Below are positions 41,557-55,975 of a stretch of 64,000 nt of DNA, piece by piece. Made by a program: the position numbers and the translations under genes. The notes under the pieces were generated by a model. It was given only the letters and a program-made list of their open reading frames with translations. It did no database searches and was not told where the DNA came from. The number at the start of each line of letters is the position of its first letter. Within the stretch, counting starts at the first letter, position 1. Origin of the DNA: Bacteroidota bacterium (lineage in GTDB: Bacteria; Bacteroidota; Ignavibacteria; UBA10030); assembly GCA_049523215.1 (NCBI GenBank), contig JBEKNC010000003.1:263394-327393 (forward strand), in the 5' to 3' direction.

Positions 41557-42045
41557 CTAATTCATAAACAAATACGGCTTCCAATGGTCATCCACAGTGC
41601 CGACGAAATGGCGGATAAACATCACGTGGTTGGGACGAATCGGTCTGCGGAGGAGAGTCATCTGTGATTCATGCAAAGTTCTGTCTCCTTTTTTGTTGTT
41701 ACAAGAGACACACGCTGCCACCAGATTTTCCCACGAATCTGGGCCGCCCTTCGCTCTTGGGATAATATGATCCACGGTGAGCATGGTGTCAGTTCTCCCG
41801 CAATATTGACAACTATGTCCATCGCGGCGCAAAATATTCTTGCGTGAGAGGACAATCTTTTTATAAGGGACGCGAACGAAAACACAGAGGCGAACTATGC
41901 TTGGATAGGGCATCGTCAAATAGACAGAATGCAATTTTTTTCCATCGCACGCCGCAATCAACTCAGCTTTGCCTAAATACAAGAGGATGACAGCTTTCTT
42001 GACATTACAGATGCTTAATGGCTCATAATTATGATTGAGCACCAA
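41557..42045 (-). CDS. HNH endonuclease family protein
   Basis: CxxC...H...N...CxxC pattern: CQYCGRTDTMLTVDHIIPRAKGG...WENLVAACVSCNNKK. Confidence 0.8.
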   Translation of the reverse strand: MVLNHNYEPLSICNVKKAVILLYLGKAELIAACDGKKLHSVYLTMPYPSIVRLCVFVRVPYKKIVLSRKNILRRDGHSCQYCGRTDTMLTVDHIIPRAKGGPDSWENLVAACVSCNNKKGDRTLHESQMTLLRRPIRPNHVMFIRHFVGTVDDHWKPYLFMN

Positions 42046-42265
42046 TACTTTTCGGCTTAGTTTTATGCTTGTACCGATGGTTTCTGCGAATATACTGAAG
42101 ACCTATGCACCTCCTTTTGACCAATTGAGCTGTTAGCTCATATCTTTCTTGAGGTATTTCGTTCTTTCCATTGAAAATATAGCATATTCCACAGCCAGAG
42201 TCAAGATTAGAATGGATTTGAGATTGTAGAGATATGAGGAATAAACTATCTCAGACCAAGGTTCG

Positions 42266-42365
42266 GGGTATTCTATCTGTTTTTCTGGATTCTCGATTAG
42301 CTGGAAAGCTGATAATGTATTACGCTTCGCGTGATTCAATTCTACGCCTCCGGCTGGGAATGATA
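42266..42365. repeat. Roughly 100-bp repeat, second copy at 57413-57508 (about 88 percent identity, same orientation)
   Basis: ggtattctatctgtttttctggattctcgattagctggaaagctgataatgtattacgcttcgcgtgattcaattctacgcctccggctgggaatga compared with the 57413 copy. Confidence 0.75.
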
Positions 42366-42455
42366 GTACTTTCTTTTTTATCCACTTGTCATATTCGGCA
42401 CACAACACCTTGTCATTCCCGCACCTAAAGTTAAAAGATGCCCGCAGTTACTTAG

Positions 42456-42932
42456 TTAGGCTATACGCTTGCCAAAAATTTTCAAACTTCTTTCCACACC
42501 GTCTAATGAAGCAATATTGGGAAGTGTTGCCCAGACTTCAAAGCCAAAACGTTTAAATAATTTTATACTTGGTTCATTATGGGCAAAAATATATCCCAGG
42601 ATTGTCTTCACACCAAATTTTGGAGCTTCATCTATTGCATGGCGCAGCACCTGCTTACCCAATCCTTTGCTTCTGTGCACAACGTCCAGATAAATACTTA
42701 GCTCGATAGTCGCATCATACGCCGGCCTGCCGTAGAACGATTGAAAACTGACCCAACCGATGATTTCACTATTTTTGTTTTCGACAACCCATAAAGGACG
42801 TTTATTGGGAGTGTGTTCATGAAACCATCGTATTCTGCTTTCTACTGAGATAGGTTCTGTGTCGGCAGTGCCAGCCCTGTCTGCGCTGATGGTATTTTTC
42901 TTTCTATACGAAACGCTCTCACCGACGGGCAT
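42456..42932 (-). CDS. GNAT N-acetyltransferase, phosphinothricin-acetyltransferase-like, with a replaced, non-canonical N-terminus
   Basis: PAT-family core (…WVVENKNSEIIGWVSFQSF...LGKQVLRHAIDEAPKFGVKTILGYIFAHNEPSIKLFKRFGFEVW). The first roughly 24 residues are unrelated to the canonical N-terminus, which is found in the fragment at 51184-51290. Confidence 0.8.
   Translation of the reverse strand: MPVGESVSYRKKNTISADRAGTADTEPISVESRIRWFHEHTPNKRPLWVVENKNSEIIGWVSFQSFYGRPAYDATIELSIYLDVVHRSKGLGKQVLRHAIDEAPKFGVKTILGYIFAHNEPSIKLFKRFGFEVWATLPNIASLDGVERSLKIFGKRIA
42699..42870. repeat. 172-bp direct repeat (copy A) internal to the GNAT gene; copy B at 51012-51183 (3 mismatches)
   Basis: Direct alignment of tagctcgatagtcgcatcatacgccggcctgccgtagaacg...gataggttctgtgtcggcagtg at both sites. 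Confidence 0.9.
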
Positions 42933-42993
42933 TTATGAAATGATTATCATGTTCACTGCCAACTGTGTGGATTTTATTTCGCGAATGGCTCTA

Positions 42994-45714
42994 TTATGAC
43001 TGGCTATTGTCGGAGCTTGTGCCGCGGTGGCCGGAGTTAGAATTCTCTTTCTTCGGTAAATCTGTCGGGAGATGTTGAGATAAAATCGTCCCGCGTTTAT
43101 CTTTGATTTTTGACAGATAGCCTCCATACAGCTTTTCTGCACATGTCGGACAAACACCATGGCTGAAGGTTGCTTCAGAATGCTCATTAATGTATTGTTC
43201 CAGTTGATTCCAGTACCCTTTATCATCGCGTATTTTTTTACAGTTCGCGCATATCGGAATGAGACCATTGAGTACTTTGATCTTCGACATTGCTTCTTCA
43301 ACATTTACTTTCAGTATTTTTTCCCGCACTATGAGGCGCCACACGCGAAGTCGATGTATACCAAGACCCGATAGGATAGCCACAATTACCATAAGGCCAC
43401 GAAACCAATTCGTCTGATAGAAATACGCAGCGATATTCAATTCCAATGCTGCGCCTTTCCAATTCCATACACCGTCGTTATTGCATGCAATGACCTTGAA
43501 TGTATATTTCCCATGAGGAATATGGGTGTAAGATGCCACGCGTCGTGTGCCAGCATCAATCCAATCTTTGTCATAACCAGCAAGCATATATTTGAAGCTT
43601 ATCAGCTGGGGTGCTGCATAACTCAGTGCGGTATAGTGAAACTCTAGTTCGCCTTGCCCCGGTCCTACTTGTATCAAACTATCAATAGCTACTTCCTCGT
43701 TGTTGACAAAAGCGTGCTCTATAAACACAGGCGGAATAAGTGTGCTCTGTCCGGCTGTTGCAGGGTCTATGATTACTACACCATTGAGTGTTGGGATCCA
43801 AAGTTTCCCATCATACGTGCGAATCCCCGCAGGCTGCGAACTTCCATTACATTTTGTGCTTATCATACCGTTATCTTTACCAAACACTGTACAATGGATT
43901 TTTTGGATCTTCCCCTCAGTAAAATCATTAAGCTCTTTCTTGTTGACACGGAAGACCCCCCGATTGCTCGTCATCCAGAGATTATTTTGCTCATCCGGAA
44001 GAATTTGGAATACACCGTTATTGTACAGACCGTCTTTCGTGGTATATGAGTTGAAGCGGCCATCTTTGAATCTACTTAGACCACCACCAAATGTGCCAAT
44101 CCAGAGAATATTGTTTTCGTCCTCGAAGAGAGAAAAAACTTCGTTGTATGCAAGCCCGTCTTTTGCGGAATACCGTGTCAGCTTCCCGTCTTTGAATCTG
44201 TGTAATCCGTTATCGGAACAGATCCATAAATTTCCATCGTGGGTCTCCAGAATAGTCCGGATACCATTACTCCCCAAACCATCCTTAGTTGTATACGTTG
44301 TGAACTTGCCATTCTTCAATGTATTGAAACCACCAAGTGTGCCGATCCAAAGAGTATGATCCCTGCTCAGGAAGAGGCTATATATAAAGTTATTTGCCAA
44401 TCCGTTTTTTGTTGTCCATGTGGTAAACTTGCCGTTTTTCAACCGGCATAAACCCTGATCAGAAGTTCCAATCCACAATGAACCGTCCACATCTTCGCAG
44501 AGTGCACGTATACTATTGGAAGGGAGACCATCCTTCATGGTGAACGTTTTCACCGATCCGTTCTTGAAACGAGATAAACCTCCGCCGATTGTTCCCACCC
44601 ATACAGAGCTATCGGATGTTTGGTAGATAGGTCGTACCTCGTTATTTCTCAACCCTTCTTTATCCGTGTAGACTGTGAACCTCCCGGGACGGAAACAATT
44701 CAGTCCGTTATTCAATGTACCGACCCAAAGATTTCCTTCAATATCTTCAAAGAATGCCTTCACAAATTTACCACTCAACACATCATCGGAGGTGTACGCA
44801 CAGATATGGTTATCCCGGATGCGGTTGAGACCTCCATTGGTTCCGATCCATAAGTTGCCGTCACGATCTTTGTAGATGCTTCGCACCCAATTGTTTGCCA
44901 AACCATCTTTGGTTGTGAATGTCGTCCATTTCCCATTCTTGAGTTGGCTGAGACCGGCGTTGGTGGCAACCCATAAAACATTGTCAATATTTTGGCACAC
45001 AGATGTGATAGTGTTGCTGGCAAGTCCGTTGGCGGTAGTATAGGTGGAAAAGACTCCATCCTTGAATCTACTCAACCCGGCAGTAGTCGAACCGATGTAG
45101 ATGCTTCCGTCGATCCCCCCGCTCACGCATGTTAAGTAATTACTGGAAAGGCCATCTTTTGTAGTGTAGTTTGTAAATTTCTCTTCCTTCCACACACTTA
45201 ATCCTTCGTACAGGGTCGTAATCCAGAGCCTTCCTTCAGCATCTTCAAAGAGATCTGTTACATAATTATTTGCAAGTCCATCTGCCCTTGTATAAGTGAT
45301 GAATTTTCCATTTCGTATTCGTGTGAGGCCATCCTGGGTTCCTATCCACAGGCTTCCGTCGGTAGATTGAATGAGTGCTTCAATGCCATTGTACCTGAGT
45401 CCTGCTGTTGTGCTTCTATCAAAAACAGTAAACTGTACTCCATCGAATCGGATAAGTCCTTCTTGTGTTCCGAGCCAAAGATAACCGTCACGTGTCTGTG
45501 TGATGCACTGTACCAAATCCTGCGGCAATCCATCTTCCTGTTTCCACACTAAATGGCTATACTGAATAGTGGTCTTTGTCGGGTCAAGCGCAAAGGAAGA
45601 TGGAGTCACAGCAAGCTGGACAAGCAGGAACCCGACAAGAATGTTCAATGCAATATTTTTCACCTCTCTAGTACTACAACTCTGAGAGTTTATCATACGA
45701 ATATTCGCATTCAT
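42994..45714 (-). CDS. Transmembrane sensor: signal peptide, double beta-propeller (two-component regulator propeller repeats), Y_Y_Y domain, TM helix, short cytoplasmic coiled coil and a C-terminal Cys4/His zinc-ribbon-like module; no kinase domain
   Basis: At least 14 Reg_prop-like repeats (G.LW.GT..GL..). Y_Y_Y region (GELEFHYTALSYAAPQLISFKYMLAGYDKDW...YTFKVIACNNDGVWN). TM helix WFRGLMVIVAILSGLGI. C-terminus LIPICANCKKIRDDKGYWNQLEQYINEHSEATFSHGVCPTCAEKLY. Confidence 0.8.
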   Translation of the reverse strand: MNANIRMINSQSCSTREVKNIALNILVGFLLVQLAVTPSSFALDPTKTTIQYSHLVWKQEDGLPQDLVQCITQTRDGYLWLGTQEGLIRFDGVQFTVFDRSTTAGLRYNGIEALIQSTDGSLWIGTQDGLTRIRNGKFITYTRADGLANNYVTDLFEDAEGRLWITTLYEGLSVWKEEKFTNYTTKDGLSSNYLTCVSGGIDGSIYIGSTTAGLSRFKDGVFSTYTTANGLASNTITSVCQNIDNVLWVATNAGLSQLKNGKWTTFTTKDGLANNWVRSIYKDRDGNLWIGTNGGLNRIRDNHICAYTSDDVLSGKFVKAFFEDIEGNLWVGTLNNGLNCFRPGRFTVYTDKEGLRNNEVRPIYQTSDSSVWVGTIGGGLSRFKNGSVKTFTMKDGLPSNSIRALCEDVDGSLWIGTSDQGLCRLKNGKFTTWTTKNGLANNFIYSLFLSRDHTLWIGTLGGFNTLKNGKFTTYTTKDGLGSNGIRTILETHDGNLWICSDNGLHRFKDGKLTRYSAKDGLAYNEVFSLFEDENNILWIGTFGGGLSRFKDGRFNSYTTKDGLYNNGVFQILPDEQNNLWMTSNRGVFRVNKKELNDFTEGKIQKIHCTVFGKDNGMISTKCNGSSQPAGIRTYDGKLWIPTLNGVVIIDPATAGQSTLIPPVFIEHAFVNNEEVAIDSLIQVGPGQGELEFHYTALSYAAPQLISFKYMLAGYDKDWIDAGTRRVASYTHIPHGKYTFKVIACNNDGVWNWKGAALELNIAAYFYQTNWFRGLMVIVAILSGLGIHRLRVWRLIVREKILKVNVEEAMSKIKVLNGLIPICANCKKIRDDKGYWNQLEQYINEHSEATFSHGVCPTCAEKLYGGYLSKIKDKRGTILSQHLPTDLPKKENSNSGHRGTSSDNSQS

Positions 45715-45876
45715 TTTACACCTCTCATATCGAGATCCGTTTTATAGAGCATAATATATATGTTGTCTTAACCTGAAAGTCAACGTTTTTTCTTGCTTTT
45801 ACCTTGACGCTGCGTACTATTTTCTTTGATCTTTCATGGACATATATTTTTATAAAAAAAGCTGACTAGAAATTAC

Positions 45877-48800
45877 TTAGCAACTTTCATCTAATACTTT
45901 CCGGATTATCTGTAGAATTTCATCAATCATATAAGGCTTCTGAATAAAACCGCGAGCCCCAGCTTTTAGGAGTTCAGATTTAACATTCGGATCAAAAAAA
46001 CCACTGGCAAAAATTACTTTTACATTCGAATTAATCTCTTTGAGTCTCTTAAATTCCTCCATACCACTAATTCCCGGAAGGCCAAGATCAGTGATGACAA
46101 GGGCAATTTTCTGTTTATGCTGTGAGTACATATCGATCCCTTCAAGACCGTCATTTGCCGTATAGACAGTATATCCTTTGAATTCGAGAAATGGACATGC
46201 GGTATCTCTTAGAAGTTCTTCATCCTCTACAAACAGAATGGTCTCTGTACCGCCAACCGAAAAAGATTTATTCGGTGTTTGCACATCCATTATGTTATCA
46301 CCGGGAGTTGAAACCGGGAAATAAAGGTGAAACGTAGTTCCAATGCCCAGTTTGCTTTCTACGCTAATGAAACCTTGATGTGCTTGCATAACACCGTAGA
46401 CAACAGACAATCCCATCCCCGTTCCTTTTCCTAACGGCTTTGTTGTGAAAAACGGATCAAATATCCTTTGTCGGGTTGCTTCATCCATTCCTTCGCCAGT
46501 ATCACTCACACTGATACTCACATATGAATCTTGATCGGCAGAAGCAAATTGTGCTCGAACGTATTCTTTAAGATGTTTCTCCACTTTCATTGAAATTGTT
46601 CCGCCATTGGGCATGGCATCCCTCGCATTAACACAAAGGTTCAATAATGCCTGATGAATCTGTATGCGATCGGCAGAGATGTATGGAATGTTCTTATCAA
46701 AAGTCTCTGTAAAGATGATGAGCTTGGAAAAGGTTTGTTTGAGCATCGACAGAATTTCGTGCACGAGTTCGGTAATATCTATCGGCTCGAATGAAATTTC
46801 GGTCTTTCGTGCGAATGTCAAAATTTGACGCACCAGCGCTGCTCCGCGCTGAATTGTTTGCGTAACAGCCGATAGACTCTCGATAAATTTCTGATCATCT
46901 GATCTTTGTTTACTCAGCAACGAAGTGTACCCGAGCATAATGCCGAGAATATTATTGAAGTCGTGCGCAATACCGCCGGCAAGCGTGCCGATACTTTGCA
47001 TTTTTTGCGATTGGAGCAACTCTTGTTGGAGTTTTTTTTGCTCAGTAATGTCTCGACTAATGCCGACAAGACCAACGATCTTCCCTTGTTCATCTCGCAA
47101 AGGCAACTTGGATGTAAGCATCCAATGTTTTTTTCCTTCCTTATCGAGAAAGAATTCCTCCTTATTGATGAGCGGTGTATTAGTCTGAATGACCGACTGA
47201 TCCTCATTATGGAAATCTGTTGCTATGTCTTTTGGGAAAAAATCAAAATTGGTTTTTCCTAAAACTTCTGCTTCTGACTGTGCTCCCATGTTATGAAAAT
47301 CTGTGATATTCGCTATGGTGATACGGCAATCAGTATCTTTGACATAGATACCATCCGGAATATTATCAATCAATATCCGGAATAAATTGCGTTCTTTTGC
47401 CAGCGTTTCCTCTACTGCTCGGCGTTCAAAGACGTGCTGTTCCAGTTGTTTCTCTCTCTTTACAAATTGCCGCACACGCCGGCGATATACACCAAATCCG
47501 GTGCTGATTATAACCACCAGCACAAGACCATAGAACCACAATGTTTGGTAGAAATGCGGTTCAAGTTCGAACGCAAAGCTTGCTCCGGTTTCATTCCACA
47601 CACCATCGCTATTGCATGCCGTGACACGAAAGACGTATTCCCTTGGCGGTAAGTTCGTATAAAACGCTTCGTGCCGTGTTCCCACCGATCTCCATTCCTT
47701 ATCAAATCCCTCCAATTTATAACGGAAATTCACTTTCTGCGGTGTAGTGAAACTCAATCCTCCATAGTGAAATTCTACCTGACCGTTGCCGGGCGCGAAA
47801 TGTCCGTACTCATATGGAGAATAATCTACCCTATCCATCACCACTCGTTCAATCACGACAGGCGGTGGAAGATTGCTTTTCTGTAATTGCTTTGGATCTA
47901 CAACGACAATACCTCCGGCGGTGGAAAACCAGAGACGGCCGTCAGAAGTCTTACACGCAGTTGATTGCCCATTACTGGAACAAACATCATTCAACATGCC
48001 ATCAGAATATGTATATGCTGTATGTTGAATACGATCAATTTTACCATCCGCAAAATCGTTGAGAATTTGTTTGCTGACACGACTGATACCATTGATATGG
48101 CTCATCCAAAGATATCCAAGATCATCCTCAAGGATTTCATACACTGCATCATTATAGAGACCATGTTTGCGGGTGAATCGAGTGAATTTACCATCCTTCA
48201 CTCGTACAAGCCCACCGCCATAACTTCCCATCCAAAGAATATGTTCACGATCTTCCATCATACCATAGATGGGTTCAACCGGCAATCCATCTTTTTGTGT
48301 ATATGTTGTTACAGATCCATTTTGCCATCGCATGACCGCCTCATTCCCTCCAATCCACATGGCGCCGCTGTGGTCAACGAGAATAGACCGGATCACATTC
48401 ATCGGTAATCCTTTATCCCGATAATTCACAAATCTTCCATTTTCTAATCGATGAATTCCACCGTTGAGCGTCCCTACCCATAAATATCCTTGGTGATCTT
48501 CTCCAATTGCGCGAATGTAGACATCTGTCAATCCATCCTTCGCAGTATACGCATGGAAAATACCATTACGAAATTCTGTGAGACCTATTTCCGTACCAAT
48601 CCATATGGTACCATGAGAATCCTCAAAAAATGAACGAACATTATTACTCGGAAGAATATTCTTTATGTGACAGACCATGAACTTCTTCCCGTCGAAACGT
48701 ACTACGCCAGCACAACCGATCCACATATCCCCATTATGTGCTTGCATGATAGACCCGGTACCAACGCTGGGTAATCCTTCACGTTCAGTGTAATTGAGAA

Positions 48801-49803
48801 ACTTCCCCTTCCAGAATTGATCCAATCCAGTATTGTAGTTGCCAACCCATAAAGTCCCTTCACGATCTTCTAATATGGAAACTACTACATCACCCGAGAG
48901 ACCATCGGAAGAACGAAATGGCATGAAGACACCAGAAGCAAACTGACAAATACCACCTCCTTCAGTTCCAATCCACAACTCTCTTGAACGATCTTCATAG
49001 ATTGCCCGAATCCTATTATTAGAAAGTCCGTCATCTGTTGTAAATGTGTGAAGTGAGCCTTTCCTCCACCTGACGAGACCTCCCGACGTACCAATCCACA
49101 TAGTGCTGTCAGATGCTTTATAAATACTTCTCACCGTTTCATGCGGTAATCCATTTTTACTCGTATAGTACGACCATCGGCCATGACGATACACGCTTAC
49201 ACCTGCATTTGTTCCTACCCAAATGTTACCTTGATGATCTTCTGCAATTGCATACACTACGTTACTGGAAAGACCTTGTGCAGTAGTGATGGATTCTGTT
49301 TTCCCATCTTTGTACTTGCGAAGCCCGGCATTCATCGTGCCTATCCAACAATTTCCCTCATGGTCTATTGCCAGCGCCCGAATGACTTCAAGTCCTCCAG
49401 TCGTGTTTGTTGGATGATACGTGAAGATACCGTTCTTGAGACTGGTAAGTCCATTGTACGTTCCAATCCAAAGCGTTCCATCGGAAGACTCAATCAACGC
49501 TGTAATGTCATTGTGCTTTAGCGCAGGCGTGTTGTCTTTATCAAACACTTGAAAGATGGATCCATTGAAGCGAACGAGACCATCTTGTGTGGCAATCCAG
49601 AGATATCCGTCTTGTGTCTGAACAAGTGCCCGACCGGAATTATGCGGCAATCCATCTTTGTTCGTCCATATTTTATGGATATACTGCCTCAGTGGTGTTT
49701 TTTGTTGTTCTTGTGCAAGAGAGCCGGGACATACAAACAAACAGGTGAGGAGAAACAATAGCAACCATCGCAATCGATGTATTGTATTCATGAAAGGCAG
49801 CAC
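45877..49803 (-). CDS. Hybrid sensor histidine kinase: double beta-propeller, Y_Y_Y, TM, PAS, HisKA, HATPase_c and receiver
   Basis: Same periplasmic architecture as the neighbouring gene. The cytoplasmic part has PAS, H-box GIAHDFNNIL, N/G boxes (DTGEGMD, GTGMGLS) and REC (ILFVEDEE...VITDLGLPGISG). Confidence 0.9.
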   Translation of the reverse strand: MLPFMNTIHRLRWLLLFLLTCLFVCPGSLAQEQQKTPLRQYIHKIWTNKDGLPHNSGRALVQTQDGYLWIATQDGLVRFNGSIFQVFDKDNTPALKHNDITALIESSDGTLWIGTYNGLTSLKNGIFTYHPTNTTGGLEVIRALAIDHEGNCWIGTMNAGLRKYKDGKTESITTAQGLSSNVVYAIAEDHQGNIWVGTNAGVSVYRHGRWSYYTSKNGLPHETVRSIYKASDSTMWIGTSGGLVRWRKGSLHTFTTDDGLSNNRIRAIYEDRSRELWIGTEGGGICQFASGVFMPFRSSDGLSGDVVVSILEDREGTLWVGNYNTGLDQFWKGKFLNYTEREGLPSVGTGSIMQAHNGDMWIGCAGVVRFDGKKFMVCHIKNILPSNNVRSFFEDSHGTIWIGTEIGLTEFRNGIFHAYTAKDGLTDVYIRAIGEDHQGYLWVGTLNGGIHRLENGRFVNYRDKGLPMNVIRSILVDHSGAMWIGGNEAVMRWQNGSVTTYTQKDGLPVEPIYGMMEDREHILWMGSYGGGLVRVKDGKFTRFTRKHGLYNDAVYEILEDDLGYLWMSHINGISRVSKQILNDFADGKIDRIQHTAYTYSDGMLNDVCSSNGQSTACKTSDGRLWFSTAGGIVVVDPKQLQKSNLPPPVVIERVVMDRVDYSPYEYGHFAPGNGQVEFHYGGLSFTTPQKVNFRYKLEGFDKEWRSVGTRHEAFYTNLPPREYVFRVTACNSDGVWNETGASFAFELEPHFYQTLWFYGLVLVVIISTGFGVYRRRVRQFVKREKQLEQHVFERRAVEETLAKERNLFRILIDNIPDGIYVKDTDCRITIANITDFHNMGAQSEAEVLGKTNFDFFPKDIATDFHNEDQSVIQTNTPLINKEEFFLDKEGKKHWMLTSKLPLRDEQGKIVGLVGISRDITEQKKLQQELLQSQKMQSIGTLAGGIAHDFNNILGIMLGYTSLLSKQRSDDQKFIESLSAVTQTIQRGAALVRQILTFARKTEISFEPIDITELVHEILSMLKQTFSKLIIFTETFDKNIPYISADRIQIHQALLNLCVNARDAMPNGGTISMKVEKHLKEYVRAQFASADQDSYVSISVSDTGEGMDEATRQRIFDPFFTTKPLGKGTGMGLSVVYGVMQAHQGFISVESKLGIGTTFHLYFPVSTPGDNIMDVQTPNKSFSVGGTETILFVEDEELLRDTACPFLEFKGYTVYTANDGLEGIDMYSQHKQKIALVITDLGLPGISGMEEFKRLKEINSNVKVIFASGFFDPNVKSELLKAGARGFIQKPYMIDEILQIIRKVLDESC

Positions 49804-49904
49804 CCTTTCTTAACATATAGAGATAAATGCTTTTAAATGGTAATCAATTTAATAATCCTTTTCCACTCTTAAGTTTGATGAGTTTACGCATTGTAATAGC
49901 TCAT

Positions 49905-51011
49905 TAAGAATGTCAGGTTTGCGTATGTTAGAAGTCCTCAAAAGAGAAATGACTTCTGGAATGGGACAAACCATAACAATGAGCATATAAGAGAAATGGA
50001 AACCCGATTGAAAATGATAGTACGGAACAAAGAAGGCAAAATCATCGTGTTAGAAGCAGCCGAGAGCATACATCTCAGCGAGCGGCAGATGTATCGTGTG
50101 TTAGCCCGCTATCGGACACAGGCAGAAGCAGGACTGGTGCATCGACTCCGCGGGGCACGAGTTCTCATCGAGGATATTCGGAAGAGAACGCGGAAGAAAG
50201 TATTTCGATTGTTCCGAGAGCAGTATTCAGATTATGATCCAACGCTGTTTTCCGAGAAGTGAGAGGAATATCACGCTTTGCGCATTTCACGGCAAACGCT
50301 CACTCGGTGGTTGGTCAAGGAAAGTCTCTGGGCGCCCAGACGCAAGAAGCGAACGGTGTCAGACAATGGGCTCACTCATTCAATTCGACGGTAGTGATCA
50401 CGATTGGTTTGAGGGACGTGGTCCGGCGCGGTGTTGTTTGTTGGTTGCCATTGACGATGCCTCGGGAAGTGTGATGCTGCGTTTTACCAAGGAAGAAGAT
50501 ACGGCAAGCGTCCCCTTTTGAGTTCTGACATAGATACATTCAACACAGAGGCATTCCTGCAGAAATCTACACAGATGGCGGTACGATCTATTTTGACACC
50601 AAAAATCCTAAACGTTTGACGCAGTTTGGCTGTGTTCTTAAAGCACTGGGCATTCATCATATCCATGCCTATTCTCCTCAGGCAAAGGAGCGGGTGAAAC
50701 GATCCAATCGAACGTATCAAGATCACCTGTTGAAGGCGTTACGCGAACAGGGCATTTCCAGCATCAAAGATGCAAATCGGTTTTTAGAGGAACTCTACTG
50801 TACTCAACACAATATGCGTTTTGCACAGTGCGAAGGACTTTCAGACATTCACCGCCCTGCTAATGGGATTGATCTCGACAACATCTTTTGCTTCGAAGAT
50901 ACTCGGAAGGTGTATAACAACTATACCATTACTCTGCACAGTCAGTTTATTCAGTTACTTCGCTCAGAAGCACCTCTGCCGCCTCCGCGCTCTACGCTGC
51001 TCCTGCGGCAA
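49905..51011 (+). mobile_element. Degraded IS, IS1202 (ISNCY)-like; DDE transposase split over three frames and truncated at the 3' end
   Basis: The ORFs 49996-50262, 50234-50521 and 50616-51014 together resemble one rve-type transposase: HTH ...LSERQMYRVLARYRTQAEAGLVHRLRGAR, then ...QFDGSDHDWFEGRGP..LLVAIDDASG, then ...HAYSPQAKERVKRSNRTYQDHL. The family call is from memory of ISNCY/IS1202 transposases. Confidence 0.65.
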
Positions 51012-51290
51012 TAGCTCGATAGTCGCATCATACGCCGGCCTGCCGTAGAACGATTGAAAACTGACCCAACCGATGATTTCACTATTTTTGTTTTCGACAA
51101 CTTATAAAGGACGTTTGTTGGGAGTGTGTTCATGAAACCATCGTATTCTGCTTTCTACTGAGATAGGTTCTGTGTCGGCAGTGACCATCCTTGAAGAGAT
51201 TGTCGAATTATATATCTCGACAATCCTTTCCAGGTCTTGAAGATTTGCGTCTCTATATATAAGTTCATCTATAGCTGTAATTGTCTTCAC
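51012..51290 (-). pseudogene. GNAT (PAT-like) gene fragment: canonical N-terminus plus the 172-bp repeat, with a premature stop
   Basis: [62 protein letters not shown]. It is identical to gene 42456-42932 over the repeat except for a ccc to ctt change that creates the stop. It ends at the IS junction. Confidence 0.8.
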
Positions 51291-51386: not shown

Positions 51387-52301
51387 CTACGAGGACTTCC
51401 CTTTCTTCACAAATGTATTGTTCTCGTATTCCCGAAAAGCAATTTCCAATTCTTTTTGTGTATTCATCACCACCGGTCCATACCATGCAATGGGTTCGCC
51501 GATCGGTTTCCCGGATATCAGGAGAAATCTCATGGACTGATCTTCTGTTTGAACAACGATTTGATCGCCGTCATCAAACAAGACAAGCGTGCCATTGGAT
51601 GCGTACGGCTCGCGCTTGATATCAAAATAATTGACTCCATCTGCTTCATAGGAAAACGGCTTCCTCTCCTTGCACAGAAATCCTTGCCCTTCGATCACGT
51701 ATGCGAAGACCGTATATCCCCTCTTCGTCGCGTGTATAAATTCCGAGCTTGACGGCACGGTAATATCGAGATACTCCGGATCGACAATAATATCCTGTAC
51801 AGGTCCCTTTGTCTTTTTGTAAGAGCCGCAGATAAGTTTTATCTTCGTTCCGTTCTCCAGAACCACGTCCGGAATATCCGCCTGTTTAACTTCCTGATAC
51901 CGCGGATCCATCATTTTGTGAGAAGCTGGAAGATTTGCCCAGAGTTGAAACCCGTACATCGCGCTTCCCGTACCGGGCTTCGGCATTTCCTGATGAATAA
52001 TTCCGCTGCCTGCCGTCATCCATTGAACATCACCCGAAGAAATGATCCCGCTGTTGCCCATACTGTCTTTGTGTTCTACGCTTCCCTTGAGCATATACGT
52101 GATCGTTTCAATTCCCCGATGAGGATGCCAGGGAAATCCTTTGATGTAATCATCCGGATGATCGGAACGAAAATCATCTAAAAGAAGGAAAGGATCGAAT
52201 TGAGGCACTTCTTTATTTCCCATCGCCCGTTTGAGACGGACTCCCGCTCCTTCAAGAACAGACTGACTTTTGAAAACTTTTTTTATTTTTCGCGTCTCCA
52301 T
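51387..52301 (-). CDS. Pirin family protein (bicupin)
   Basis: HPHRGIETITYMLKGSVEHKD cupin metal-site motif and a second cupin domain. Confidence 0.9.
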   Translation of the reverse strand: METRKIKKVFKSQSVLEGAGVRLKRAMGNKEVPQFDPFLLLDDFRSDHPDDYIKGFPWHPHRGIETITYMLKGSVEHKDSMGNSGIISSGDVQWMTAGSGIIHQEMPKPGTGSAMYGFQLWANLPASHKMMDPRYQEVKQADIPDVVLENGTKIKLICGSYKKTKGPVQDIIVDPEYLDITVPSSSEFIHATKRGYTVFAYVIEGQGFLCKERKPFSYEADGVNYFDIKREPYASNGTLVLFDDGDQIVVQTEDQSMRFLLISGKPIGEPIAWYGPVVMNTQKELEIAFREYENNTFVKKGKSS

Positions 52302-52325
52302 CTTACACCTCCGTTTAGTTATTTT

Positions 52326-52386
52326 TAGCTGACGTCATTGACGTCGGCATTTTCTTCCCCGCGACCATCGGTCGCGGCTACAAAAT
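52326..52386. repeat. Second copy of the 63-bp double-hairpin element (see 7884-7946), intergenic downstream of pirin
   Basis: gctgacgtcattgacgtcggc and ccgcgaccatcggtcgcgg hairpins plus the shared tail ctacaa. Confidence 0.75.
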
Positions 52387-52495
52387 CATTTTACCACCGA
52401 CTCTATTATTGTTTCTTAAGTTCCGCCTTGCAAAATTCCGAACGTTAAACGATGTTTAAGAAACCGATAGGATATGCTCAATCCAATCTTAAGCT

Positions 52496-53008
52496 CTATT
52501 CAATTGAATACTTCTTAATTTTATTGCAGAATTCATCAAGATCGGTACCTTCAATATCCTTTAGTTCCATATTCTTTAAAATTGGCAACATCTTTTGGGG
52601 ACACTTTAATTCACCTTCCCACCACTCCTTTGAATGATCCGCATCGGCAAATTGTTCCCATAAAGAAATATCCACATTTGCTTCAGATATTTCGTTTTTG
52701 ATTAAATTCGTGAATACAGTTTTTATCCCTTTAAATGAATAGTAGTTTTCGATGCTATATCTTTTCAATACTGTGGGAATAATATTTATGGATTTACATC
52801 GTTCTATAAATTTATCTCGCGGCTTCTTATCTTTTGTGTCTTTATCAAGCAAAACAAAAACATTTCTTAATTGTGCAAATGGAGTCGGATCAAAGAACGC
52901 CATCATACTTCCTGAGAGGAATACGTATGAGACAGAGAAAGTATTAGCAATGTTATACCAATGTTTAAGAATATAATCCATTAGTATGGGATCATTTTTC
53001 CCCTCCAT
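52496..53008 (-). CDS. AT-rich ORFan, possible Toprim-like (DUF4276/OLD-C-terminal-like) domain protein
   Basis: N-terminal EGKND and later VFVLLDKDTKD resemble Toprim E..(G) and DxD motifs. The codon usage is AT-rich and atypical for the window. It abuts a truncated DUF559 gene. The assignment is speculative. Confidence 0.3.
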   Translation of the reverse strand: MEGKNDPILMDYILKHWYNIANTFSVSYVFLSGSMMAFFDPTPFAQLRNVFVLLDKDTKDKKPRDKFIERCKSINIIPTVLKRYSIENYYSFKGIKTVFTNLIKNEISEANVDISLWEQFADADHSKEWWEGELKCPQKMLPILKNMELKDIEGTDLDEFCNKIKKYSIE

Positions 53009-53249
53009 GAGAATCGCCGTCTATCTCAAGAACCAATTTCAATCGCGGACAATAAAAATCTACCACATATTCATCAATCGGCTTCTGCCTGTGAAAATCA
53101 TAACCTAATAATTGCTTGCCCTTAATTTGCTGCCAGAGAAGAATTTCTGTCAATGTCATATTCTTCCGCAATGTCCGTGCAGCCTGTTTGAGTCTCGGAT
53201 TGTATTCTATCCATTGGTTTCTCACGAACACACCCCTTACCCCTCTCAA
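52992..53249 (-). pseudogene. DUF559 endonuclease-like gene, C-terminally truncated
   Basis: ...YVVDFYCPRLKLVLEIDGDSHGGEK* stops right after the EIDG.SH motif, whereas family members (including the copy at 1-262) continue about 40 aa further. Confidence 0.55.
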
Positions 53250-53395
53250 GAGGGGACGTTTAAGCTTAAATTCAAAAATCTTTTCTTAGCACCACATCAT
53301 TTTCCTTCTTCCTCATATTCATCCCGCCGGCATACTATCCGATGAACGTTTGTGATATATGAAACGTAGAGATAATATATCGCCTGATCTGCCAA

Positions 53396-53737
53396 TTACA
53401 CACTTGGAGCTTTACAAATTTTTGATACAAATAATTCAATGAACAATCCAAATATGGTTCCTCCTATAGTGTAAGGAATAAAACCCATTACATTATTATC
53501 AAGAATCATACCTATGGAATATGATAGAGTTACTAAAAAACCAATGAATGCTCCGTGGAGGAGATAATTCATTTTTAACCTACTTATACCGATAACAAAA
53601 CCAATTAAAATTCGATTTCCAAAAGATGAAACAATTAATGCAGATAATGTGATGGATGGAATTAAATATTTCCTTCCGATAGCACATATAATCGCACAAA
53701 TAATTCCAGCTATGATAGATAATGATAATCTTTTCAT
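53396..53737 (-). CDS. Small 4-TM membrane protein, hypothetical (AT-rich)
   Basis: Hydrophobic helices starting from MKRLSLSIIAGIICAI. The upstream in-frame extension to 53821 is less likely. Confidence 0.35.
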   Translation of the reverse strand: MKRLSLSIIAGIICAIICAIGRKYLIPSITLSALIVSSFGNRILIGFVIGISRLKMNYLLHGAFIGFLVTLSYSIGMILDNNVMGFIPYTIGGTIFGLFIELFVSKICKAPSV

Positions 53738-53971
53738 TTTTTCTCTCCTTAAAATTGTTATTTGTGGACAATTGCGTACAACATACAGATACATGCATAG
53801 ACAACGGCTGAGAAGAGCCAATGGAGTTCATTTGCCCTGCACAATATCTTTTCTCTTTTAGATTTTTCTTCGAATCGGAATCCCCAATGATGATTACGGC
53901 GGCTCGGGATTTTTCTAACTATAAATATACGCGTTTCCGGATGGTCGGGCAAGGGCTGCTTTTACTCTGAT

Positions 53972-54009
53972 GCCACCACCCCACACCCCTCCTCATATGA
54001 GGAGGGGAC
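53972..54009. repeat. GC-rich hairpin ccaccacccc..cccctcctcatatgaggagggg; related to 10929-11039 and to cccctctcaagagggg at 53236-53256
   Basis: 22-nt perfect palindrome preceded by a ccaccacccc box, the same pair of motifs as at 10929-11039. Confidence 0.6.
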
Positions 54010-54216
54010 GTTCCGATGTATTTCAATCGGAACAGGGGTGGTCGATAAACGCCAGAGAGTAATCAAAGGCAAGCATATCACTTCAAGAGAGTGTCGGGAG
54101 GAAACTCCCGCCATCACATTTACACGTGAAATCATTAAAAAATCAAGATTTGCTTGTTTCTTCGGAAATTTATTTGAATATAGATTAAAACAGAATAACA
54201 TAATTATCAAAAGGGA

Positions 54217-54624
54217 TTGTGTATGCCTCTCATAGAATGGAACAACACCTTTTCGGTTGAAATACAAAAAATCGATGAACAACATAAGAAGTTTTTTTCT
54301 ATTATCAACGTGTTATATGATGCTATAATGCAAGGCAAGGGTGAAGAGGTTGTGGGTTCGGTATTGAAGGAGTTACAACAATATGTGATATTTCATTTCA
54401 AATCCGAAGAGTCCTGGATGGAAATGTACAATTATCCGGATATAAACAAGCACATCCTGGAACATGAAGGGGCGATTCAAAAAGTGAACAAGCTCGTACT
54501 GGAATATGAACGAGGCCAACAAACCGTCGATATTGAATTATTGAAATTCTTAAGCGATTGGCTCCAAAATCATATTCTCAAGGCCGATAGGAATTATATT
54601 CCATATTTCCGGGGAAAAGTATAG
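54217..54624 (+). CDS. Hemerythrin-like (bacteriohemerythrin) protein
   Basis: HHE cation-binding pattern: H...HF..EE..M......H..EH...D; IEWNNTFSV...IDEQHKKFF...HFKSEE...HILEH...DWLQNHILKAD. The start is probably MPLIEW at 54223. Confidence 0.8.
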   Translation: MCMPLIEWNNTFSVEIQKIDEQHKKFFSIINVLYDAIMQGKGEEVVGSVLKELQQYVIFHFKSEESWMEMYNYPDINKHILEHEGAIQKVNKLVLEYERGQQTVDIELLKFLSDWLQNHILKADRNYIPYFRGKV

Positions 54625-54694
54625 CAAAGTATTTTAGATATTAATTCGAGGTCGTGCGCAATGCAATCACATTTACAAGCTGCAAAATTATTCA

Positions 54695-55354
54695 TCACTT
54701 AAGCAGAACAAGTTTCCTGGTGTCTGTAAATGACCCGGTTTGTAGCCTATAAAAATATACTCCGCTCGGCATCGATGCAGCATTCCATATCTTCGAGTAA
54801 CTGCCGGCCGCCATATTTTCACTCACTATAGTCGCCACCTCCTGTCCTACCAGATTGTACACCTTTATCGAAACATAGGTTTGAAATGGAATATCAAACG
54901 AGACCGTTGTTGTTGGGTTGAACGGATTCGGATAATTCTGCTTCAGCCCGAAAGCATCGGGTCGGAAAGAAATCCGATCATTCTCAATACCGGTGGCTGC
55001 GGACGCAGTGAACGATCCTGTCATCCCCGCCGAAAAATGGAAGTCGCATTGATAGAGATACATGCCCGCAACTGCGACAGGATACGTAAATACGCTACCG
55101 GAAGCCTGATGAAAGCTTTGTGCACCGGCGGGAACACTCGTGGAACTCAGCGGATGCATACTAAAATCACCCTCCCACTTGACCGTGTCCCCTACGAAAA
55201 CATTCAGAGAATTGGGCGAATAAGTAAGTCCAAACGAACCCCCGAACTGGATGACATGGGTTGTGGCATGCGCTGTAGTCGCAACTGCGAGTAACATTAC
55301 TACCCACACAATCGATGTCGTTCTCTGAAATACCAAGATGGATTGTTTTTTCAT
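54695..55354 (-). CDS. Type-1 copper (cupredoxin/plastocyanin-like) protein with T9SS C-terminal sorting domain
   Basis: Signal peptide, copper ligand cluster YLYQCDFHFSAGM (C..H....M) and a C-terminal approximately 80 aa Por-secretion CTD (NYPNPFNPTTTVSFDI...VYNLVGQEVATIV...GVYFYRLQ). Confidence 0.75.
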   Translation of the reverse strand: MKKQSILVFQRTTSIVWVVMLLAVATTAHATTHVIQFGGSFGLTYSPNSLNVFVGDTVKWEGDFSMHPLSSTSVPAGAQSFHQASGSVFTYPVAVAGMYLYQCDFHFSAGMTGSFTASAATGIENDRISFRPDAFGLKQNYPNPFNPTTTVSFDIPFQTYVSIKVYNLVGQEVATIVSENMAAGSYSKIWNAASMPSGVYFYRLQTGSFTDTRKLVLLK

Positions 55355-55975
55355 GATAAATCCTTTCTGATTTGGTTTGTGATTACTTTGAGTTGAATCT
55401 GAGTCACCGCTTGTTCATTCCTTCGTCTCGATGATGGCAAAGCAATACCAAGAGGTGCCTTAGTTTTCATAGGAATAATTTCTTTTATGATTTTTGCATT
55501 TTACCAACCAGCTTTAGAAAGCATTGCCGCGCTTTTACCACAATCCGATTATACTTTCTATTATGAACAGTTTAGAGACCTACAATGTTCCCACGGAGGT
55601 ATTCATTTTTAAGCCTCTTTTTGAGTTCTCCCTTTGCCTTACCAGAACCAAATATCAAAATAGATATTGCATTACGATAAATTAATCATGTTGCCGTTAG
55701 AAGCAATAGTCTATTCACATGGAAATACTCCATCATCCACGTCTCCACGCGCCAACAACCGGGGCTTTAATTGCGCCGCCATTTTTGGAGGGAACGATGC
55801 ATTGGAAACCTAATCATCTTCCCGCACTTTGTCAGCTGAAATTATCTCTTAATTCGGCGTATTTTCCCAACACCTTACTATCTCTCAAACTTACTTGATA
55901 ACCATGCTAACTTTCCCTATCATAAGAATAGACATGTTCATTCGCTAATTCTGTTAACCTAACAGGAGGTATGTT

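Follow-up and report, generated by a model that had tools for sequence, protein, structure and literature searches.

A 172-nt direct repeat in a GNAT gene that probably reflects the tandem joining of two allelic layouts of one locus

During conjugation in E. coli, most recombinants were found to arise by single crossovers of shortened circles, which gave lacZ duplications of 109-950 bp, and homology-facilitated illegitimate recombination, tested in the same organism, was rarer (PMC3240628). The latter process is traced by PMC5361080 to de Vries & Wackernagel 2002, Prudhomme et al. 2002 and Meier & Wackernagel 2003. Much shorter repeats accompany transposition: the IS1202 family generates target repeats of up to 27-29 bp, and its ISTde1 subgroup repeats of 16-17 bp (bioRxiv 10.1101/2022.12.17.520857).

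The locus described here lies in a 64-kb window (the whole stretch of DNA that was analysed), which belongs to a short-read metagenome contig assembled with MEGAHIT (ena:ERZ27250059:k141_226828). A reading of the sequence alone had reported that 172 bp of a GNAT gene occur twice in it with only 3 mismatches, and had proposed that a circular element carrying a GNAT fragment integrated there by a single crossover. Repeat search and alignment bear out the duplication. Two alternative layouts, X and Y, exist at this locus among relatives, and the window holds both in tandem. Our analysis indicates that the repeat probably arose when these two allelic layouts of one locus were joined in tandem. The 172 bp are the overlap of two separate truncation points in the GNAT gene; they are neither a target duplication nor an attachment site.

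Anatomy of the repeat and of the DNA between its copies

The features that matter to the argument are given below by coordinate in the window; loci of relatives are cited by number (L004, L006 and so on).

42456..42932, minus strand: chimeric ORF of 158 aa, made of 24 unrelated residues and GNAT residues 37-173
42699..42870, minus strand: left repeat copy, GNAT nt 108-279, placed by repeat search and alignment
42871..42993, minus strand: spacer (3' flank of HK2), 90-94% identical over its full length in L004, L006 and L018
42994..45714, minus strand: HK2, a Reg_prop/Y_Y_Y sensor of 906 aa (Pfam) without a kinase module and with a Cys-rich C-terminal tail
45877..49803, minus strand: HK1, a hybrid sensor histidine kinase of 1308 aa (Pfam: Reg_prop propellers, Y_Y_Y, PAS, HisKA, HATPase, REC)
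49804..49891, minus strand: region upstream of HK1, where the Y-type part starts; L006 and L018 match it at 96-97% identity
49892..51011, plus strand: truncated and decayed IS remnant, IS1202 family (ISNCY, ISTde1-like), with its left inverted repeat at 49892-49917
51012..51023, no strand assigned: microhomology patch TAGCTCGATAGT at the GNAT/IS joint, placed by alignment to intact IS copies
51012..51183, minus strand: right repeat copy, GNAT nt 108-279; TAA stop codon at 51102-51104
51184..51290, minus strand: GNAT 5' end (nt 1-107), X-type part, running into the right copy exactly as in intact genes
51387..52301, minus strand: pirin gene (Pfam Pirin and Pirin_C), the upstream neighbour of GNAT in the X type

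A repeat search of the window grouped 42699-42870 and 51012-51183 as a direct repeat of 172 nt with 98% identity (family D4). The three mismatches (42789/51102 C/T, 42790/51103 C/T and 42804/51117 A/G) separate exact runs of 90, 13 and 66 nt, and the similarity of both copies breaks off sharply at either end. The GNAT gene is read from the minus strand, the right copy being tied to its 5' part and the left copy to its 3' part. As the sequence-only reading had noted, the right copy continues a canonical GNAT N-terminus and carries a 2-nt change that creates a stop: the double change TGG to TAA at 51102-51104 leaves an ORF of 62 aa (51290-51102), and the 5' end upstream of the copy (51184..51290) is 96% identical to L005 and 93% to L037. 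The left copy was likewise correctly described as attached to a novel N-terminus that restores an ORF. This chimeric ORF (158 aa, 42932-42456) starts with MPVGESVSYRKKNTISADRAGTAD and matches the GNAT Pfam models from about profile position 21-30 on; the codons of its novel N-terminus are the last 62 nt of the spacer. Outside the 172 nt, alignment found no residual GNAT similarity, one side being IS DNA and the other the HK2 flank. Ancient, diverged tandem paralogues joined by a gene-conversion tract were considered and rejected, since the two fragments are complementary and share no GNAT homology beyond the 172 nt.

Compared with uninterrupted GNAT loci, the window carries an extra 8.1 kb inside GNAT, with the duplication on both sides. 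The two large propeller sensors and the degraded IS reported between the copies were recovered with Pfam and NCBIfam. HK1 shares 94.7% amino acid identity with L006, and HK2 shares 66-77% with L006 and L018 and 94% with the L004 fragment. An HK2 paralogue in L016 has a flank that aligns with the first ~38 nt of the spacer as well. Pfam found no integrase, replication or transfer gene in the block, whose sole mobility gene is the dead IS, and its G+C content (0.40-0.45) equals that of the flanks. With no element genes and a host-like G+C, the block does not qualify as the discrete accessory element it had been taken for; in close relatives it constitutes the resident alternative layout of the same locus. 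A foreign genomic island or integrative element was rejected on the same grounds, Pfam detecting only the sensors and the IS remnant.

The IS was assigned to the IS1202 family, for which ISNCY is the older nomenclature. NCBIfam model NF033594 matches three ORF fragments of the transposase remnant, which is frameshifted (an in-frame stop, frame breaks and several indels), and the left end of the element has a 25-nt deletion. Intact relatives are about 1494 bp long, have TGT ends and encode a transposase of 450-467 aa. These copies set the left end as TGTAATAGCTC..., and the same start in the window is 49892. The left inverted repeat is present once in the 64-kb window, and the right inverted repeat is absent from all of it: ~345 nt of the right end, including that repeat, are missing, and the element ends at transposase residue ~340 of 450-467. 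A target repeat of 16 nt was found at the intact copy L033 and none at L034 and L035.

At the right junction (51011/51012), GNAT nt 279 is joined to the interior of the transposase gene, and no IS terminus is present there. The patch at this joint pairs T-G-GCTCGAT-G-GT of the IS with T-A-GCTCGAT-A-GT of GNAT, 10 of the 12 positions being identical and 7 contiguous; its IS sequence was taken from four intact relatives (80-82% protein identity) and may differ from the lineage's own IS before the event. The joint is illegitimate, at a short microhomology and without a site-specific or transposase end. No second right junction was recovered from 5.8 billion proteins searched with the N-terminal fragment and its read-through tail; one protein, P0241 (99 aa), runs on into normal GNAT sequence and is not a right junction. 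The minus-strand ORF that crosses the junction (50951-51133) had no exact record, and the only exact record for the chimeric GNAT and pirin proteins was the window's own contig. A 60-aa gene called in L001 corresponds to 50505-50687 and does not cross the right junction.

Two layouts of the locus in relatives

Four loci (L003, L005, L037 and L038) have the X type, composed of pirin, intact GNAT, HNH and trpS, and represent the empty site. The uninterrupted GNAT gene that had been suggested as a check is found in all four, directly after pirin and coding for 167-180 aa, in L003 within a 3.64-Mb contig. HNH and trpS follow in L003 and L038, and neither HK1 nor HK2 was detected in L003 or L005. 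A tandem GNAT arrangement was looked for in relatives devoid of the sensor genes and was not seen.

The Y type is composed of HK1, HK2, the spacer, an N-terminally truncated GNAT, HNH and trpS, and lacks pirin, the GNAT N-terminus and the IS. It occurs in L006 and L018, which are two GTDB species representatives, and in the independent JGI contigs L029 and L030. These loci are collinear with the window from 61.7 kb to 55771 and then jump straight to 49891, past which they continue with HK1, HK2, the spacer, GNAT from nt 108 onward and HNH-trpS. On both sides the window has sequence homologous to the Y-type relatives, with 91% identity in the left flank and 94% in the right. Pirin is absent from L006 and L018, and in none of the four Y-type assemblies was any part of the IS or the right copy found. 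The IS terminus at 49892 is flush with the last base common to L006 and L018, where the Y-type sequence runs on unbroken, which argues that the Y layout was already in place when the IS inserted. From there, L006 and L018 pass into unrelated native sequence with a hairpin and a T-run, and then into the conserved left flank (window 55771 and up).

The left junction (42870/42871), where the HK2 flank meets GNAT nt 108, is old and common to the Y-type relatives, being present in L006, in L018/L029/L030 and in L004. The latter, a JGI sequence of 929 bp, has the same HK2-end/spacer/chimeric-GNAT junction at about 93% nucleotide identity and the same N-terminal peptide, its chimera being protein P0037; in L006 and L018 the chimera is shortened further by deletions. 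Since this junction is found in relatives without the right copy, pirin or the IS, the two ends of the repeat would come from different events at different times, and the right junction, because it cuts the IS, would be younger than the IS insertion. What lies upstream of GNAT varies, close relatives having different cargo in this slot. A metagenome scan with HK1 yielded 3 loci, two repeating the L018 layout and one a paralogue, with no window-like relative among them, and a genome scan with HK2 yielded many distant paralogues (among L007-L027) that are uninformative for the locus. No X-type genome from the strain's own population was found.

Of the 172 positions, 3 distinguish the two copies, compared to 11-21 that distinguish each of them from every relative, and derived states are common to both. 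Likewise, orthologous copies in lineages with the left junction differ by 7.6-9%, against 1.7% for the two copies of the window. This near-identity requires either a very close donor and recipient or later gene conversion. Over the 172-nt segment, the left copy is no nearer to Y-type relatives (11-15 differences) than to X-type L005 and L037 (13-15), and this segment by itself did not yield a simple tree with one origin for all Y junctions. Measured at synonymous sites over R+C, the left copy is nearest to Y-type L004 (dS 0.135 versus 0.20-0.23). The dN/dS values on GNAT pieces, which rely on small counts, are 0.21-0.36 for Y-type L004 and 0.11-0.17 for the left copy of the window, and are suggestive only of a relaxed GNAT in the former and not in the latter.

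Order of events and competing explanations

We infer the following order of events. The ancestral locus would have had the X layout, in which the conserved left flank was followed by a variable segment with pirin at its end, and this by intact GNAT and HNH-trpS-scpAB. In an old second step, HK1-HK2 and the HK2 3' flank would have taken the place of the variable segment and of GNAT nt 1-107, producing the Y layout with its left junction (42870/42871) and a truncated GNAT that is decaying in relatives. An ISTde1-like element of the IS1202 family would then have inserted 88 nt upstream of HK1 in a Y-type chromosome. Finally, recently and in the strain's own lineage, X-type DNA and IS-bearing Y-type DNA of closely related cells may have recombined; the involvement of another cell is proposed because X and Y, as allelic layouts, should not be found together in one genome. 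One exchange would have been an illegitimate joining of GNAT nt ~270-279 to internal sequence of the IS transposase gene, at the 12-nt patch with its 10 identical positions, and the other homologous, in common flanking or GNAT sequence. The homologous crossover point could not be located, the left-flank boundary (about 55771) being too variable across X and Y types. The product would consist of an X part up to GNAT nt 279 and a Y part from nt 108, so that nt 108-279 are present twice. Linear incoming DNA, acting through homology-facilitated illegitimate recombination, would be as compatible with the sequence as a circle closed at the illegitimate joint and then integrated by a Campbell-like single crossover. 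The circular integration proposed at the outset is partly supported: one homologous crossover within the repeat is topologically valid as a last step, but the junctions would have been made at different times and the block is no discrete element.

Both junctions could instead have been made at once, in a common ancestor of the window and the Y types, by Campbell integration of a circle bearing IS-HK1-HK2 and an internal 172-bp GNAT fragment, provided that deletion subsequently removed the pirin side, the right copy and the IS from the Y types and that gene conversion kept the copies of the window alike. The topology fits, the insert being bordered by a direct duplication and empty sites being known, and single-crossover duplications of 109-950 bp are known experimentally (PMC3240628). 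However, the deletion in the Y types would have to stop exactly at the IS terminus (49891/49892) and to leave a native-looking hairpin and T-run that are missing from the window at either breakpoint, and neither the IS nor the right copy can be discerned in the four Y-type assemblies. Sustained gene conversion would also be needed to hold the copies 1.7% apart when left-junction lineages differ by 7.6-9%, and the block has no element genes and the composition of the host. This one-step integration is already disfavoured, and we give it a slim chance. Far less credible still is a transposase-driven event in which the IS moved the sensor genes into GNAT by one-ended or composite transposition, the 172 bp being an aberrant target duplication. 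An IS does lie at one end of the block, and target repeats in its family can reach an unusual length (up to 27-29 bp). Neither repeat copy, though, sits at an IS terminus: the right one borders on internal sequence of the transposase gene, and 7 kb separate the left one from the left end of the IS. Moreover, no right inverted repeat exists anywhere in the window, target repeats of the subgroup measure 16-17 bp (16 nt in L033), and the left junction is found in relatives without the IS. Such an event is already contradicted by these data. A composite transposon was rejected, the repeats not being at IS termini and the right inverted repeat being absent. The initial judgement that 172 bp is far too long for a transposase target duplication therefore stands in view of the 16-17-bp repeats, but the IS-mediated duplicative rearrangement offered as an alternative does not, because the right copy begins at a microhomology in the transposase interior and not at an IS terminus.

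Linkage of the two copies and the right junction rest on one MEGAHIT contig. The tandem might exist in no cell if X-type and Y-type strains in the metagenome each carried a related IS remnant, beside GNAT or HK1, and MEGAHIT crossed from one to the other via the IS sequence. This is conceivable for a short-read contig of this kind, given that X/Y-type relatives and related intact IS copies are present in the same or sister samples (L033 in the same assembly, L038 in ERZ27245388) and that the right junction has no independent sighting: a Logan contig (SRR7028477) that is 100% identical spans 48405-50259 and supports the IS-HK1 junction only. Nevertheless, k-mer overlap cannot create either junction, as the patch is 12 nt long and the longest exact run (90 nt) is shorter than k = 141. 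An assembly chimera would need two separate copies of the same decayed IS remnant, exactly alike over >141 nt, and among other IS copies of this assembly the closest reaches only 80% protein identity. We therefore consider it unlikely, and retain the joining of X-type and Y-type layouts in tandem as the probable origin of the repeat.

In a tandem of this kind, the block would be lost by RecA-type recombination of one repeat copy with the other; an intact GNAT would result if the crossover lay 5' of the TAA in the direction of the gene. It is a long shot that the tandem represents a real, metastable intermediate of recombinase-free cassette exchange, in which the block loops out via the 172-bp repeats, rebuilding a working GNAT, and the circle or linear DNA re-enters X-type cells by a single crossover. 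If so, the two-sensor cassette would be a mobilisable module relying only on host homologous recombination.

Comparison with described systems

The locus is a case of ordinary genome plasticity, neither a new mobile element nor a new mechanism. It offers, in an uncultivated peat/fen Ignavibacteria-like lineage, a natural example of a long, integration-like direct repeat without integrase, attachment site or transposase action, and adds a case from nature in which microhomology mediated joining to a dead IS. Two unrelated breakpoints of different age in one gene may mimic the Campbell signature once locus variants are joined, which calls for caution with automated island or integrative-element calls based on flanking direct repeats.

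The IS remnant resembles the ISTde1 subgroup of the IS1202 family in its fit to the NCBIfam ISNCY model and in the TGT termini and ~1.5-kb length of its intact relatives, but here it is a dead, 3'-truncated bystander that provided chance similarity, not transposase activity. The topology of the product is that of Campbell insertion-duplication: an internal gene fragment is present on both sides of the insert together with 5' and 3' gene fragments, and the repeat length is within the lacZ range (PMC3240628). Unlike in that process, the window contains no plasmid or element backbone, any circle would have been a non-replicating excision product of a Y-type chromosome closed at the IS/GNAT microhomology, and one end of the homology would have been set by a much older rearrangement. 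Homology-facilitated illegitimate recombination is similar in that one side is joined at an imperfect microhomology of short length, where neither a recombinase nor a transposase has left a signature, and the other side would lie in sequence homologous to the recipient. In its classic form, recipient DNA is usually lost where the illegitimate joint forms, but 172 bp are duplicated in the window, and uptake from another cell is here proposed for an uncultivated Ignavibacteria/Bacteroidota-like bacterium. Cassette displacement, as at Rhs C-terminal regions and in the T6SS effector-immunity arrays of V. cholerae (PMC5361080), also features a variable segment between conserved flanks and strain-specific cassettes, and its recombinants keep the old and new cassettes in tandem with leftover gene fragments. 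The window has neither toxin-immunity logic nor a repeated array and is apparently a one-off, its cassettes being a pirin-GNAT segment and a pair of propeller sensors.

The 172-nt repeat and the intact GNAT locus

The 172-bp direct duplication described by the sequence-only reading is real: positions 42699-42870 and 51012-51183 are 98% identical, differ at three of 172 positions (42789/51102 C/T, 42790/51103 C/T and 42804/51117 A/G) and lose identity abruptly at either end. The locus, which comes from a MEGAHIT metagenome contig (ena:ERZ27250059:k141_226828, 328 kb), has its genes on the minus strand and a transposase remnant in the opposite orientation.

Features of the locus, in gene direction
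52301-51387, minus: pirin, first in gene direction
51290-51102, minus: GNAT codons 1-62, ended by TAA through a TGG to TAA double change; the repeat runs on to 51012
49892-51011, opposite to the other genes: ISNCY transposase remnant
49803-45877, minus: HK1, 1308-aa hybrid sensor kinase (Reg_prop propellers, Y_Y_Y, PAS, HisKA, HATPase, REC)
45714-42994, minus: HK2, 906-aa Reg_prop/Y_Y_Y protein
Between HK2 and the left repeat copy: spacer, 123 nt
After the spacer, minus: second repeat copy and remaining GNAT
42932-42456, minus: chimeric ORF, 158 aa (spacer, second repeat copy and GNAT 3′ part)

The reconstructed full GNAT gene belongs to the PAT/YncA/ArsN1-like acetyltransferases, and its intact homologues (167-182 aa) are 88-94% identical. 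All four loci of this intact type that we read (X layout: L003, on a 3.64-Mb contig, L005, L037 and L038) have the intact gene directly after pirin; in L003 and L038 the syntenic order of the window then continues with HNH, trpS, scpA and scpB. HK1 and HK2 are absent from every X-type locus extending far enough, and relative to the X layout the window carries an extra 8.1 kb within GNAT.

Between GNAT and trpS lies a stand-alone 162-aa HNH endonuclease (41557-42045, minus) whose conservation, 97-98% aa in all relatives, exceeds that of the neighbouring genes. A stretch of some 210 nt that follows GNAT on its downstream side (window 42243-42455) and forms the 5′ portion of an ORF of 91 aa has no counterpart in L003, L005, L006, L018 or L038, where homology returns at about 42242; this looks like a further small indel at the locus.

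The Y layout and the left junction

The closest relatives found are two GTDB species representatives, L006 ('Ignavibacteriae bacterium fen_1299') and L018 ('Bacteroidota bacterium SPRUCE 214'), with HNH at 98% and trpS at 95-98% aa identity. These loci, and the independent JGI contigs L029 and L030 of identical layout, are collinear with the window from 61.7 kb to 55771 and then pass straight to 49891, followed by the HK1 upstream region, HK1, HK2, the spacer, GNAT from nt 108 and HNH-trpS (Y layout). All four lack a counterpart of window 55770-49892, a segment with genes for a Por_Secre_tail protein, hemerythrin, DUF559 and pirin, followed by GNAT nt 1-107, the right repeat copy and the IS. 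Relatives conserve the spacer at 90-94% across its full length, and L004, a 929-bp JGI contig, shares the window's HK2-end/spacer/GNAT junction (about 93% identical) and also encodes the N-terminal peptide of the chimera that had been called novel (P0037, VPVGESVSYRKKNIISADRAGTAD...). The left junction (42870/42871), present in L006, L018, L029, L030 and L004, is thus an old one that is widespread among these relatives and occurs in the absence of the right junction. The truncated GNAT has suffered further 3′ loss in L006 (window 42732-42216) and L018 (42634-42238), as would be expected of a pseudogene.

Window 52000-55770, which separates pirin from the conserved left flank, is a slot of variable content. 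Its cargo here (a Por_Secre_tail gene, hemerythrin, a 141-aa membrane ORF, DUF559 and a 170-aa ORF) is low in G+C (0.35-0.38 at 52-54.5 kb); L003 carries DinB and GH2, L005 carries GH3 and GH2, and in Y types the slot is empty. The adjacent sensors diverge from those of L006 and L018 to very unequal degrees: HK1 is 94.7% identical (aa) to that of L006, with patchy similarity to L018 (73-94%), while HK2 reaches only 66% (L006) and 77% (L018), against 95-98% for flanking housekeeping genes. The pattern suggests sequence exchange between these two genes and the numerous sensor-pair paralogues of these genomes (L007, L008, L016, L028). Pfam models found no kinase or output domain in HK2 and did not match its Cys-rich tail past the transmembrane segment (GLIPICANCKKIRDDKGYWNQLEQYINEHSEATFSHGVCPTCAEKLYG, CxxC...CxxC; 43100-43290, minus, residues ~815-865), which is kept in L004 (94% aa).

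The insertion sequence and the right junction

NCBIfam's ISNCY transposase model is matched by three pieces of the remnant, whose intact relatives (450-467 aa) are 80-82% identical. The four intact IS copies that we read (L033-L036) measure about 1494 bp, with ends TGTAATAGCTC... and ...GAGCTTCTACA, features consistent with the ISTde1 subgroup within the IS1202 family (TGT ends, 16-17-bp repeats; bioRxiv 10.1101/2022.12.17.520857). The window copy has decayed: it contains several indels, an in-frame stop and, close to the left end, a deletion of 25 nt. It is cut off at roughly residue 340 of the transposase, and its right inverted repeat was not found anywhere in the 64-kb window. One intact copy, L033:3111-4605 (contig k141_609739 of the window's own metagenome assembly), lies between nusB and a guanylate-cyclase/TPR gene. 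This ISTde1-like element of ~1494 bp is apparently intact, encodes a transposase of 462 aa, has TGT ends and a target repeat of 16 nt (TGAAGAATTATAGTAG), and is a candidate for description as a new IS.

The left inverted repeat begins at 49892, flush with the final base that the window has in common with L006 and L018: the window reads ...TTTACGCAT|TGTAATAGCTC... where L006 reads ...TTTACGCAT|TGAAACAAAAAACCCTCAGC... Beyond this base L006 and L018 carry an entire hairpin with its T-run, after which comes the conserved left flank. The most parsimonious interpretation has the IS entering a pre-existing Y-type junction. On the opposite reading, Y derived from a window-like ancestor through deletion, but the deletion end would then have to coincide exactly with the IS tip, and sequence found at neither breakpoint of the window would be needed. 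Under IS entry into Y, the right junction (51011/51012), since it cuts the IS, would be younger than the insertion and hence younger than the Y layout.

At the right junction intact IS copies read CGACAG-T-G-GCTCGAT-G-GT-TC, GNAT (plus strand) reads ATACT-T-A-GCTCGAT-A-GT-CGC and the window reads CGGCAA-T-A-GCTCGAT-A-GT-CGC. IS sequence thus gives way to GNAT sequence within a 12-nt patch, identical at 10 of 12 positions, seven of them contiguous; by our own estimate the chance of such a match at a fixed alignment is about 4×10−5. The junction is in all likelihood the mark of microhomology-mediated illegitimate recombination, and its position in this patch led us to reject transposition and site-specific recombination. 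It is known from a single short-read contig, and an assembly chimera via two near-identical IS remnants would be an alternative source. We consider such a misjoin unlikely: the longest exact run in the repeat (90 nt) is below k = 141, a 12-nt patch is too short to connect de Bruijn nodes, the decayed IS remnant is unique, and a Logan contig (SRR7028477), though probably from the same sample, is exact over 48405-50259.

Outside the window, P0243 (ENA, 1428-bp contig), a GNAT homologue of 75% aa identity, is cut directly after '...YDGTVEI', at the codon that corresponds to the repeat end, and continues into unrelated GRAHV; this may be another break that arose independently at the same position.

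Age and origin of the tandem locus

The repeat copies differ mutually at 3 of 172 positions and each differs at 11-21 from every relative's copy; they have derived states in common, such as Ile and Ser in TEP-I-SV and NKN-S-EI, and a search of 5.8 billion proteins with the N-terminal fragment joined to the IS read-through peptide gave no other case. The tandem layout therefore appears to be of recent origin and restricted to the window's strain. Given how nearly identical the copies are, either the two parents, X-type and Y-type, were very closely related or the copies later exchanged sequence. The tree of the 172-nt segment alone did not group the left copy with Y types; by synonymous distances over the GNAT pieces R+C it is nearest L004.

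We think it rather probable that the repeat is the overlap of two GNAT truncation points, created when X and Y layouts were joined in tandem. The old 5′ truncation point (nt 107/108) would date from the making of Y, and the young 3′ point (nt 279/280) would be the joint to the IS; X DNA to nt 279 followed by Y DNA from the IS interior onward would give exactly the window. The final step would require one illegitimate joint and one homologous exchange, either on linear DNA by homology-facilitated illegitimate recombination or through a circle closed at the illegitimate joint and then integrated by a single crossover, with the same product. The Campbell-type integration proposed earlier is thus a possible topology for the last step; its 'accessory element' is unsupported, the block being host-like in G+C, devoid of mobility genes and a resident allele in relatives.

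The tandem locus, while of low general interest, cautions usefully against taking long direct repeats at the flanks of a block as a sure sign of an integrative element. It is a natural instance, in an uncultivated lineage, of known recombination processes. Both routes have experimental precedent; in E. coli, lacZ duplications of 109-950 bp arose by single crossover of a circle (PMC3240628). Cassette displacement at Rhs and T6SS loci, which leaves orphan fragments behind (PMC5361080), is comparable to the window locus in that respect.
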